From IMG/VR virus record IMGVR_UViG_2531839668_000008: 12,818 nucleotides of DNA. One strand, written 5' to 3'. Made by a program: the position numbers. Source of the stretch: a virus. Lineage: Duplodnaviria; Heunggongvirae; Uroviricota; Caudoviricetes. Of this stretch, positions 1-2,625 are shown piece by piece. Within the stretch, counting starts at the first letter, position 1; the number at the start of each line of letters is the position of its first letter.

Positions 1-2625
1 GTGGCACTTGAAATTGGCGGGCATCCGTCGTTGTTGTTGCCAGATGTGGCGATTAGTCTTGACCGTACTGAAGGTGCCACGCTGGAGTTTTACGAAGCTG
101 AGGCGAAAAAGCAGGCGAAGCAGTTTTTCATGGATGTTGCTGCCGGGTTATGTGAAGGGGATGAACCGTCACCGGAAAAGCGCCCCGTAATTTTAGAGGC
201 GCAGGATGTGTTGATAACCTACAGAGGAAAACTACCGGGAATAATTACTGGTTCTCTGAAGACTCCACCGCTGGCCTGAAGACTTAACATATCCAGGGAT
301 TTGAAATCGATAAACCCTGATAAATATCCATGAACGCAAAAATCAGATACGGCCTGTCGGCTGCCGTTCTGGCGCTGATTGGTGCAGGGGCGTCTGCGCC
401 TGAAATCCTCGACCAGTTTCTGGATGAAAAGGAAGGTAACCACACCACAGCATACCGTGATGGTGCGGGGATCTGGACCATCTGCCGTGGTGCCATTCTG
501 GTGGATGGTAAGCCTGTCGTTCCGGGCATGAAGTTGTCGAAGGGAAAATGCGACCAGGTTAACGCCATTGAACGTGATAAGGCGCTGGCATGGGTGGAGA
601 AAAACATCAAAGTGCCATTGAGCGAACCCCAGAAAGCGGGGATCGCGTCATTCTGTCCGTACAACATTGGTCCCGGTAAGTGTTTCCCGTCGACGTTTTA
701 TAAACGAATTAATGCAGGTGATCGCAGGGGAGCGTGTGAGGCGATTCGCTGGTGGATTAAGGACGGTGGCAGAGACTGCCGTATTCGTTCAAACAACTGC
801 TACGGTCAGGTATCCCGTCGTGACCAGGAGAGCGCGCTGGCGTGCTGGGGTATCGACAGATAAGCAGAATATTTTGCTGAAAAATAAGGCATGGCCACGC
901 GGGCGGATAACATGAAATCCTGCGAACTGGCGAAACGTAAGTGAATAAAAGTAAAAACCCCGTTTGTTGGCACCAAGCGGGGTTTTGTGTTTCCTGACTC
1001 CGGAAAAGTCAAAGGAGAAAGTGTGTTTGATTTTAGCAAACTGATTCGGGAGATTCGAGTGATGGCTGAAAAATTATCCACCTGGAAGTTCATTCTTATC
1101 TGGCTGGTGTTTGTGATTATGGCCTCCGGTTATTTCATCGGTCAGATACGCTGGTGGTGAAATGAACCGCGTACTGTGCGTGGTCATCATTGCCCTGCTG
1201 GTGGCCTGTGGTGCGCTTAGTCTGGGGCTGAATCATTACCGTGATAACGCCATTACCTACAAAGCCCAGCGCGACAAAAATGTCAGAGAACTGAAGCTGG
1301 CGAACGCGGCAATTACTGACATGCAGATGCGTCAGCGTGATGTTGCTGCGCTCGATGCAAAATACACGAAGGAGTTAGCTGATGCGAAAGCTGAAAATGA
1401 TGCTCTGCGTGATGATGTTGCCGCTGGTCGTCGTCGGTTGCACATCAAAGCAGTCTGTCAGTCAGTGCGTGAAGCCACCACCGCCTCCGGCGTGGATAAT
1501 GCAGCCTCCCCCCGACTGGCAGACACCGCTGAACGGGATTATTTCATCCTCAGAGAACGGTTGATGACAATGCAGAAGCAGCTGGAAGGGGCGCAGGAAT
1601 ATATCCGCACTCAGTGCACTAAGCTGGCTTTTTATTATCCGGAGGATATATGAAGAAATTACTGGTAACCGTAAAGCCTTTTCAGGGAACAATTCTGTTC
1701 CGTATTTTGCAGCGTGGTCGTGTTCTTGTTGAAGGTTCGTTCAGTGGTAAATGTACGCAATTACACTCCCGGACCTTTCAGGTGAATGCCACGAATGAAG
1801 AGCTAACCGTTGAGTGTACGATGAATGCCGCTAAATGCCGCATGGTATCCGCTGCATTACAGCCAGTGTGTTGAGCGACCTTATTATCCATGCGCGGTAT
1901 TGTCGCCGTATTCCCGCATTAACAGAGACCGCAGCCCGACCGGGAGACTCCTCTTCGCGAGTGTGCGGGGATAATCAAAAACGATACACACCGGGGTTTA
2001 CCGCGTTAACGGAGCGCGGCGTTGCCCCTCATAGTCGCCTGTCCGGTGCGATGGTGGAAGAAGCCGGACGATGTGTTACCTCGCAAGCCCTGTTATGTGT
2101 CTGATTTGTGATTTTAGTCGGATAATTGTCGTTGCCATCAAGCAGAGGATTGATGACCGACAGGGTGGCATTGTTAGAATAAGACTTATTCTTATCTGTG
2201 CCGGGAATGAAAATGAAAAGAAATCTTCCGTTAATTATTTTGTTGTCTTCTCTGGTTATGGGCTGTACGCAACATAAAACAGATATGCCCCGACAATTGG
2301 TGAAGGCATTACCACAATATCCGGCCTATGCAGCGGCAAATTATATAAAGGGACGGGTTGATGTGAAGTTTGATATTGGTGCTGATGGTACTGTCACCCG
2401 AATTGAGTTTATCCGTTCAGAGCCGCACCATCTGTTTGATGAGCAGGTTGTAAAGGCGATGGCAAAATGGCGATTTGAGAAGGACAGGCCGCGTAAAGGC
2501 GTGAAGAAAACGTTTATCTTTAGTCCTTCTGCACCCTGATTATTTCATCAGAAATTAATTATCACTCTGTTGTTATTCTGTACATCCCGGCTGGGTAAGT
2601 CTTGTTCCGCCGGGTATGAAGATGA

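Follow-up and report, generated by a model that had tools for sequence, protein, structure and literature searches.

A mobile late-operon cassette of Enterobacterales prophages carrying a 45-codon membrane-peptide gene and a candidate antisense promoter

The late operons of lambdoid phages are transcribed by a Q-modified RNA polymerase that is resistant to terminators. Morons (lambda bor and lom, HK97 gp15) are extra, mobile pieces of DNA that lie between conserved late genes, encode membrane proteins and bring their own promoter and a downstream terminator. Lysis cassettes also hold small membrane proteins with two in-frame starts, the products of the holin/antiholin dual-start genes (lambda S105/S107, phage 21 S68/S71), which have two or three transmembrane (TM) helices. 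Releasin, gp25 of phage Mu (DUF2730), is a small membrane-tethered protein encoded near a signal-arrest-release (SAR) endolysin and spanins, with an N-terminal TM domain and a larger C-terminal cytoplasmic domain (PMC9239132). In the Shiga toxin 2 (Stx2) prophage Sp5, the hokW-sokW locus encodes HokW, an inner-membrane protein that brings growth arrest, lysis and phage release forward (PMC8621323). In the IsrK-orf45-anrP region of Salmonella Gifsy-1, read-through of a terminator leads into a hairpin-masked open reading frame (ORF) of about 45 codons, whose stop abuts the next start and which is coupled to that gene (PMC4825925). Finally, STnc6030 of phage BTP1 is a prophage antisense RNA against a late transcript that excludes sibling phages (PMC7067206). 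Here we analysed a hairpin and an adjoining mini-gene located between the endolysin gene R and the spanin gene Rz in a 12,818-nucleotide stretch of Caudoviricetes DNA (IMG/VR record IMGVR_UViG_2531839668_000008), which as a whole is called the window.

The locus shares with hokW-sokW a single-TM peptide of about 50 residues in a lambdoid prophage, a masked Shine-Dalgarno (SD) sequence and a predicted cis-antisense RNA over the translation-initiation region, and by analogy a contribution of the mini-protein to late membrane damage or lysis would be plausible. Unlike Hok, the mini-protein has no Hok sequence similarity and is predicted to be tail-anchored, there is no mok-like frame and no sense promoter belonging to the locus, and its RNA matched none of the Sok, Sib, Rdl or IstR families of Rfam. 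Of the hallmarks of type I toxin-antitoxin systems, the small (<60 residues) hydrophobic membrane peptide is present (45 residues, TM segment 23-39, a single predicted helix), and a toxin promoter was found neither in 864-1023 nor in the homologous leaders. Like IsrK-orf45-anrP, the locus has a terminator upstream, a ribosome-binding site (RBS) in a hairpin, about 45 codons and a stop adjoining the next gene start. The Gifsy-1 orf45, unlike the present ORF, lies just after Q/pR′, uses AUG starts, encodes a peptide that is not conserved and is regulated in trans by a terminated small RNA (sRNA); an identity of the two was rejected on the grounds of position, AUG starts and the non-conserved peptide, and they are not homologous.

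Two possible in-frame starts in a small lysis-cassette membrane protein are reminiscent of the dual-start holin genes; in contrast to them, the mini-protein has one TM helix, 13 codons separate its starts and it is also encoded outside lysis cassettes. It gave no holin or antiholin match in Pfam or NCBIfam, its C-terminal tail consists only of QIRWW, and a separate class II holin is present upstream of the mini-gene of the window. Releasin resembles the mini-protein in being small, tethered to the membrane, equipped with a cytoplasmic segment and encoded near a SAR endolysin and spanins. The TM segment of the mini-protein is, however, C-terminal, no DUF2730 or other Pfam match was obtained, and the family also accompanies GH19 and GH108-like endolysins. 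Morons and the present locus are alike as mobile insertions between conserved late genes that encode a membrane protein, and differ in that here the terminator is upstream, no promoter was found and the orientation is fixed.

A conserved 45-residue membrane peptide in a mobile cassette

The gene order is class II holin (S21-type, just outside the window), YdfR-family gene, lysozyme gene R, hairpin and mini-ORF (864-1160), and Rz. The features of the cassette and its junction with Rz are the following.

941-992, both strands: HP1, the terminator-like hairpin at the left end of the cassette (stem 954-966/974-986, loop 967-973; A-tract 941-957, U-tract 983-992)
990-1018, plus strand: HP2, the leader hairpin (UUUCCU 990-995 pairing with AGGAGA 1013-1018; inner stem GACU/AGUC)
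1011-1017, plus strand: SD sequence AAAGGAG, 5-nt spacer to the GTG at 1023, read from the sequence
1023-1160, plus strand: mini-gene, 45 codons from GTG, stop TGA 1158-1160 (PGAP coding sequence WP_000459345.1; phrog_6632)
1048-1064, plus strand: possible internal start, SD-like GGGAG 1048-1052 and ATG 1062 (Met14), 9 nt apart
1030-1058, minus strand: candidate antisense promoter inside codons 3-12, extended -10 TGCTAAAAT (1038 to 1030), 17-nt spacer, weak -35 TCGAAT (1058 to 1053)
945-1023, minus strand: predicted cis-antisense RNA of about 70-80 nt, 5′ end complementary to the start codon, SD and HP2, 3′ end formed by HP1 and a U-tract
1153-1164, plus strand: Rz junction, Trp-Trp-stop TGGTGGTGA doubling as an SD-like GGTGGTGA for Rz, then A 1161 and ATG 1162

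A preliminary description of this DNA had reported a 32-codon ORF with a good RBS and a single TM helix. Frame, helix and stop were confirmed; the length of 32 residues was not borne out. In the genome of Escherichia coli O157:H16 strain 98-3133, which was 100% identical to the window over the 501 bases tested, the NCBI PGAP pipeline calls a coding sequence at 1023-1160 that starts with GTG and encodes 45 residues (WP_000459345.1). Residues 1-45 matched positions 1-45 of the 45-position profile phrog_6632 (E = 1.2e-29), which was also matched by the distant members P0047 and P0054. Residues 2-13, which the 32-residue reading omits, were conserved in all homologues, and the 45-residue homologues of Salmonella (67% identity), E. 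fergusonii (82%) and E. albertii retain the 13 N-terminal residues. Almost all copies start with GTG, those of Edwardsiella with TTG and the most distant ones with ATG, and a GGAG, GAGG or GGAA motif stands at the SD position in all of them. As judged from these comparisons, the conserved product is the protein of 45 residues from GTG 1023 rather than that of 32 residues from ATG 1062, and the gene should be annotated in this way. A second, 32-residue product from ATG 1062 is possible; every member of the family has Met14, all nine copies compared have G as the last base of codon 9 and GAG as codon 10, and a Serratia copy (L026) consists of the 32-residue part alone.

Conservation of the frame in related phages, which the preliminary description had proposed as a check, was found together with purifying selection. 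Between diverged copies the ratio of non-synonymous to synonymous divergence (dN/dS) was 0.09-0.16, with 16 synonymous and nine non-synonymous differences between the window and E. fergusonii. Among eight diverged copies, the corresponding ratio pN/pS was 0.25 in the frame of the ORF, compared to 0.78 and 2.49 in the other two frames. A profile search of 1.84 billion representatives returned 41 relatives at E <= 1e-3 across the Enterobacterales, nearly all of them 44-51 residues long when correctly called. They share the N-terminal motif D-[FIL]-S-K-[LI]-[IV]-R-E-[LI]-R-x-M-x-E-x-L-x-x-W-[KR]-F followed by a hydrophobic stretch, and the C-terminal QIRWW is typical of one subfamily only. The mini-ORF is very likely a functional gene. 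The preliminary description had called it unannotated, which holds for the annotations of H-19B and SPN3UB, where it is left out; it is annotated in CP-1639 and as a RefSeq 'hypothetical protein', and the exact 45-residue protein was found on at least 1000 contigs (the 32-residue form on 211), always labelled 'hypothetical' or 'phage protein'.

AlphaFold2 modelled the mini-protein as one continuous helix over residues 4-44 (pLDDT 87). The N-terminal part is a charged amphipathic segment, and the most hydrophobic 17-mer comprises residues 23-39 (mean Kyte-Doolittle value 2.5). Five Lys and Arg residues lie on the N-terminal side of the TM segment and one on the C-terminal side; the protein is therefore predicted to be an N-in/C-out, tail-anchored peptide. 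No match was obtained in Pfam, NCBIfam or PADLOC.

The distribution of the ORF was established by a scan of species-representative genomes and by look-ups of distant homologues. Copies were recovered in Escherichia, Salmonella, Trabulsiella, Citrobacter, Edwardsiella, Yersinia, Izhakiella, Sodalis, Brenneria, Symbiopectobacterium, Providencia and metagenomic phages. The sequence that leads into the ORF has the same layout in almost every copy: behind an A-tract comes a G+C-rich hairpin, then a U/C-rich tract, another, short hairpin, the SD and GTG. Homology between copies starts about 15 nt to the left of HP1, and the flanks further out are unrelated. Hairpin, leader and ORF thus very probably constitute one mobile cassette. 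The window and L016 carry it with an S21-type holin, YdfR, a lysozyme and a PF03245 Rz; Salmonella L008 with Phage_holin_2_3, a lysozyme and Rz; E. fergusonii L012 with Phage_holin_8, a GH19 endolysin (Pfam) and a DUF2514-type Rz; and Edwardsiella with a GH108-like endolysin (from reading of the sequence). Outside lysis cassettes, L110 has it between tail genes K and I, L022-L025 and L115 have it downstream of J or of tail-fibre genes, and L021 and L116 have it in other structural modules. In all contexts examined (about 19), it is co-oriented with the upstream late gene. At a coverage of at least 80% it is present in 899 of 5426 complete E. coli genomes (~17%, about one in six), E. coli 042 and 55989 are carrier strains, and it also lies in the lysis cassette of the Shiga toxin 1 (Stx1) phage H-19B and its relatives.

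The preliminary description rightly noted that the classical arrangement has no such ORF between R and Rz; the uninterrupted state is seen in K-12 Qin, where rrrQ and rzpQ overlap. In 933W and in Sakai Sp6, Sp10 and Sp15 the R-Rz junction holds a different insert, which in 933W, Sp10 and Sp15 consists of ant and a 48/49-residue TM ORF (phrog_4906; ECs_1966, ECs_5741). This phrog_4906 ORF (933W, L006 3335-3484; Sakai, L120 5125-5271 and L114 14749-14895) encodes a single TM segment and lies in 933W-type Stx phages between the antirepressor gene ant, whose stop it overlaps, and Rz, from which 7 nt separate its end; it is unannotated in NC_000924 and annotated in the current Sakai record. In phage GER2 (L007, 2590-2834), the same hairpin and leader precede an unrelated 37-residue TM ORF (phrog_4493) whose final IRWW-stop is separated from Rz by one base; the first cassette of E. 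fergusonii has the same leader in front of another unrelated small TM ORF, phrog_12997. With at least four unrelated families of small membrane ORFs, the R-Rz junction is a hotspot for such genes.

Tandem cassettes were observed twice, with two copies in E. fergusonii L012 (2685-3138) and three in L116 (2430-2900). In these arrays (K/R)WW-stop closes each ORF and the next hairpin follows directly, a pattern suggestive of shuffling of the cassettes at conserved sequences on their boundaries. Salmonella phage SPN3UB (L005) has, upstream of its cassette, an unannotated 38-residue hydrophobic ORF (2386-2502; MTMSKRDVSALCFLMAAAVAISGNDGWGWLIFAGIIIL) with a weak phrog_14810 match, which overlaps the 3′ end of the endolysin gene.

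Hairpins, translation signals and a candidate antisense RNA

The strong hairpin that the preliminary description had placed at 954-992 was recovered as HP1, whose stem (954-986) has 13 pairs, six of them G-C, with a 7-nt loop, and is followed by TTTTGTGTTT up to position 992. Its fold has an energy of -20.1 kcal/mol (z = -3.3 compared to shuffles). On sequence, HP1 has what defines an intrinsic (Rho-independent) terminator, a G+C-rich stem-loop with a U-tract. Because an A-tract precedes the stem and a U-tract trails it, HP1 is terminator-like on both strands, the stem being followed by UUUUGUGUUU on the plus strand and by UUUUUACUUUUAUU on the minus strand; HP1 of E. fergusonii L012 was itself picked up as a minus-strand terminator. 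Across 16 diverse copies, 93.8% of the cells of the stem were paired, compared to 36-57% in slid controls, and compensatory changes were present in seven of the 13 pairs, a level that none of 500 shuffles reached.

No plus-strand sigma-70-like promoter was found in 864-1023, in the homologous leaders or between the hairpin and Rz, and the upstream flanks of the cassette are unrelated between contexts. Expression of the sense strand must therefore come from upstream read-through. At the level of translation, the probability that the SD is paired was 0.86 in the window compared to 0.43 with shuffled upstream sequence, and it was at least 0.8 in eight of 14 diverse leaders. The inner stems of HP2 vary in sequence and register (GACU/AGUC, CCUUG/CAAGG, CGUUA/UAACG), and RNAalifold did not recover HP2 as a consensus, the inner stems shifting register between lineages; for this reason SD occlusion was scored sequence by sequence. 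We have moderate confidence that HP2 masks the SD. At the other end of the gene, the stop (TGA 1158-1160) lies one base before the Rz start (ATG 1162), as already noted in the preliminary description. The junction TGGTGGTGAnATG recurs in front of three different i-spanin genes, which suggests translational coupling, and on this reading of the sequence coupling between the mini-ORF and Rz is likely.

The synonymous sites at the beginning of the ORF are unevenly conserved. Codons 3-5 (GAT TTT AGC) and 10-12 (GAG TTG/ATT CGA) are each represented by a single codon wherever the amino acid is shared, and codon 6 is AAA in nine copies and AAG in one, whereas codons 7-9 and 15-45 vary freely (Mann-Whitney p = 0.002 versus the frozen codons). 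Synonymous variation (pS) was 0.345 in the frozen region versus 0.752. Read on the minus strand, the first frozen block corresponds to an extended -10, codons 11-12 to a -35 (TCGAAT/TCGCAA) and the variable codons to part of a 17-nt spacer. All 17 distinct cassettes have a TAnnnT hexamer at this position, 15 of them with TGn before it, and the hexamer is kept where the amino acids have changed (S-Y-I-K, E-F-I-K, H-L-S-R, D-F-R-P, E-S-S-N), in L115, L116a/b, L117 and Eferg_a. Wherever a copy has Ser at that place the codon is AGC, which contributes the G of TGn; A/T-richness for initiation would not account for this choice.

An antisense RNA from this candidate promoter would start near 1022-1024 in the window and would be 64-76 nt long in all cassettes, the distance to HP1 being constant. 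The predicted RNA of the window folds into two hairpins (-23.2 kcal/mol, z = -3.0), and the left boundary of cassette homology coincides with its U-tract. The sibling cassette of GER2 has a minus-strand promoter-like site (TGGACA-18-TATACT, 10 of 12 positions) aimed at the hairpin, which is the sole one in 400 nt. Taken together, we consider the existence of the antisense RNA an evenly balanced question. Should it exist, it would be a widespread prophage sRNA absent from Rfam, and the locus would illustrate how prophages can carry a toxic membrane peptide that lacks its own promoter and is gated only by antitermination. Rfam 15 gave no match on either strand of 864-1160; the only matches in the window at E <= 1 were ALIL (7215-7331) and a weak Trp_leader (3642-3719).

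Another antisense promoter flagged by the scan at 1145-1116 was dropped, as it is not conserved in the homologues. Several mapped sRNAs were also considered as the predicted antisense RNA and rejected. Among the Hfq-bound RNAs of the Hfq-CRAC data set (Tree et al., 2014), EcOnc22 maps to an unrelated insert with a 39-residue ORF at the Sp15 tail genes I/J, EcOnc11 sits downstream of Rz in Sp10, and EcOnc33 lies inside the esterase gene of Sp6. The three Sakai prophages examined have an ant-type insert in place of the cassette, so that this data set cannot test the antisense RNA. The sRNAs Pas, AgvB and AsxR are encoded at a different position, upstream of the holin at the pR′ moron site. The Sp15 insert (L119, 2191-2432, minus strand) is 240 bp long and lies between tail genes I and J; there the 3′ arm of a hairpin overlaps the SD of the 39-residue non-membrane ORF, which is followed by a terminator, and the Hfq-bound EcOnc22 of about 85 nt is antisense to it. 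The layout of terminator, mini-ORF and antisense RNA is similar to that of the cassette and not homologous to it.

Proposed late expression and its alternatives

We propose that the cassette is a promoter-less, type-I-toxin-like unit for a membrane peptide that is made only late, an interpretation that we regard as having an even chance of being right. In the lysogen, HP1 would halt stray transcription ahead of the mini-gene, the masked SD and the weak GTG would keep translation low, and an antisense RNA, if it is produced constitutively, would base-pair with leaders that are transcribed nonetheless. Upon induction, Q-modified polymerase would ignore HP1, late transcription would outnumber the antisense RNA and the peptide would be made; we infer from this that its expression is confined to the late phase. 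The peptide would then enter the inner membrane late in infection and perturb the membrane or a membrane partner in the manner of a type I toxin, and in the copies within lysis cassettes the terminating ribosomes would be handed to Rz. An action on the membrane in late infection or lysis, the most economical guess by analogy with HokW, can be put forward only tentatively. The presence of copies in tail modules indicates that no particular holin, endolysin or spanin partner is needed. If the peptide does affect membrane integrity late, it would be an unrecognised lysis component of Shiga-toxin phages and hence of toxin release.

Several points weigh against this proposal. Type I toxins normally carry their own promoter, and none was found for the mini-gene. 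The -35 of the antisense promoter is poor (three of six positions) and the promoter was not called at the 9/12 threshold of the tool; the frozen synonymous sites might alternatively be due to constraints on translation initiation or to the internal SD. SD masking is absent or weak in Sodalis and Providencia and only modestly above shuffles in several lineages. The mapped Hfq-bound sRNAs of the Sakai prophages (EcOnc11, 22 and 33) are other elements, the context of the tail-module copies implies no lysis-specific role, and literature searches by accession, peptide substring and topic returned no paper on the mini-ORF. The gene is already catalogued (phrog_6632, with no function annotation), while no earlier account seems to exist of the architecture of the cassette or of the signal for an antisense promoter.

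The preliminary description had proposed a 32-residue, antiholin- or pinholin-like regulator of lysis timing translated from ATG 1062, with the hairpin separating the transcription of R from that of Rz/Rz1. The lysis cassette around the ORF of the window does encode a class II holin of the S21 type and a SAR-like lysozyme, Met14 and the GGGAG upstream of it are conserved, a G36xxxG40 motif can be read in the TM helix, and the Serratia copy is a 32-residue version only. Residues 2-13 are nevertheless conserved and under purifying selection, and the ORF accompanies three holin types and unrelated endolysins, occurs in tail modules as well, and has no match to a holin family in Pfam; we hold this role to be improbable. 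Nor does the hairpin imply that Rz and Rz1 are not simply co-transcribed with the endolysin gene, as had been claimed, since it travels with the ORF, no promoter lies between it and Rz, and Q-modified polymerase is known in general to pass terminators. A classical moron, that is, an inner-membrane protein expressed in the lysogen for the benefit of the host, for example by superinfection exclusion like HK97 gp15, would account for a mobile insert between otherwise adjacent late genes that encodes a small membrane protein, is common in prophages of pathogenic E. coli and has stayed intact in the degraded prophage of the window. It does not account for the missing sense promoter, a terminator placed upstream instead of downstream, the masked SD with GTG start, or an orientation that always follows the late operon and would be needless for an autonomous unit, and this explanation, too, has little probability.

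The close junction with Rz raises the question of whether the ORF serves merely as a coupling leader that brings ribosomes to Rz after insertion of the hairpin broke the R-Rz coupling, with a functionless peptide. The stop and the Rz start 1 nt apart, the WW-stop codons that form the Rz SD, the conservation of the junction with three Rz types and the precedent of orf45 upstream of anrP (PMC4825925) all fit such a role. Purifying selection nevertheless acts at the amino-acid level over the whole peptide, unlike in the variable orf45, many copies have neither Rz nor any other coupled gene downstream (L020-L025, L110), and C-termini without RWW exist, which leaves coupling as the sole function of the ORF an improbable explanation. 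Slightly less improbable, albeit still unlikely, is that the antisense RNA is the main product and the peptide secondary, the RNA cleaving or blocking late transcripts of related phages (superinfection exclusion) or acting in trans through its CUCC-containing 5′ end. The conserved minus-strand -10 at constant distance from a bidirectional terminator, the coincidence of the left cassette boundary with the antisense U-tract and the precedent of STnc6030 of BTP1 (PMC7067206) are in its favor, while the peptide is under purifying selection far past the promoter region and Rfam holds no match. As a role of the predicted RNA, exclusion like that by STnc6030 is, by analogy, a live alternative. That the ORF arose by chance next to an ordinary endolysin terminator might be argued from a simple terminator scan, which found four sites compared to 3.1 in shuffles, and from short hydrophobic ORFs being common. 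This explanation, whose probability is negligible, was refuted by comparison of the copies: conservation extends across the family, selection is specific to the frame, the hairpin covaries, and hairpin and ORF have moved together into unrelated contexts.

Returning to the proposed late-only peptide cassette, its broadest form would be a new class of mobile late-operon cassette in Enterobacterales phages, comprising a bidirectional terminator, a masked RBS, a tail-anchored 45-residue peptide (perhaps in two lengths) and a cis-antisense RNA of about 70 nt from a promoter in the first 12 codons. Such a cassette would be a type I toxin-antitoxin device that is promoter-less, gated by antitermination and used to tune lysis or to exclude related phages, with siblings carrying phrog_4493 or phrog_12997 and with tandem arrays. 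In this complete form the idea is conceivable yet rather doubtful.

Surrounding genes of the window

The window represents the late region of a degraded lambdoid E. coli prophage, and the gene survey of the prophage found no head or terminase genes in it. The genes next to the cassette, which are context and lie outside it, are the following.

1-279: 3′ end of the YdfR-family gene
330-863, plus strand: endolysin gene R, 177-residue phage lysozyme with a hydrophobic, SAR-like N-terminus (PF00959, E = 9e-24; 'lysozyme' in the identical genome)
1162-1653, plus strand: Rz, i-spanin (PF03245, E = 4e-53)
1382-1564, plus strand, embedded in Rz: Rz1, o-spanin, an ORF with the lipobox VVGC

The segment of about 90 nt after the endolysin stop (864-953) has 83-90% identity in hundreds of Stx phages, 933W included, regardless of the insert that follows, and it belongs with R and not with the cassette. 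On the 3′ side of Rz there are a truncated ORF, a TonB-C-like lipoprotein gene, tail-tip remnants, lom, tail-fibre genes, an IS3 element, espS, nleA and dinI. The truncated ORF (1650-1874, 74 residues) overlaps the Rz stop (ATGA) and matches only positions 100-172 of the 291-position phrog_2571. It is apparently what is left of a longer phage gene, which fits a deletion joining the lysis cassette to the tail-tip remnants. Right after the lysis genes, 2198-2539 encodes a small lipoprotein-like protein with the lipobox LVMGC and a TonB C-terminal domain (PF03544, E = 6e-15), a candidate prophage moron. The IS3-family element (about 6800-8050) lies among type III effector genes (the espS pseudogene, with nleA further on) and contains the ALIL frameshifting pseudoknot at 7215-7331 (Rfam RF01497, 120 bits); the window can thus be described as a locus of exchangeable effectors in a degraded prophage. 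The sub-threshold Trp_leader match at 3642-3719 (23 bits, E = 0.5) probably reflects no more than a strong intrinsic terminator, GCCCGCCGGTTCAGGCGGGCTTTTTT.

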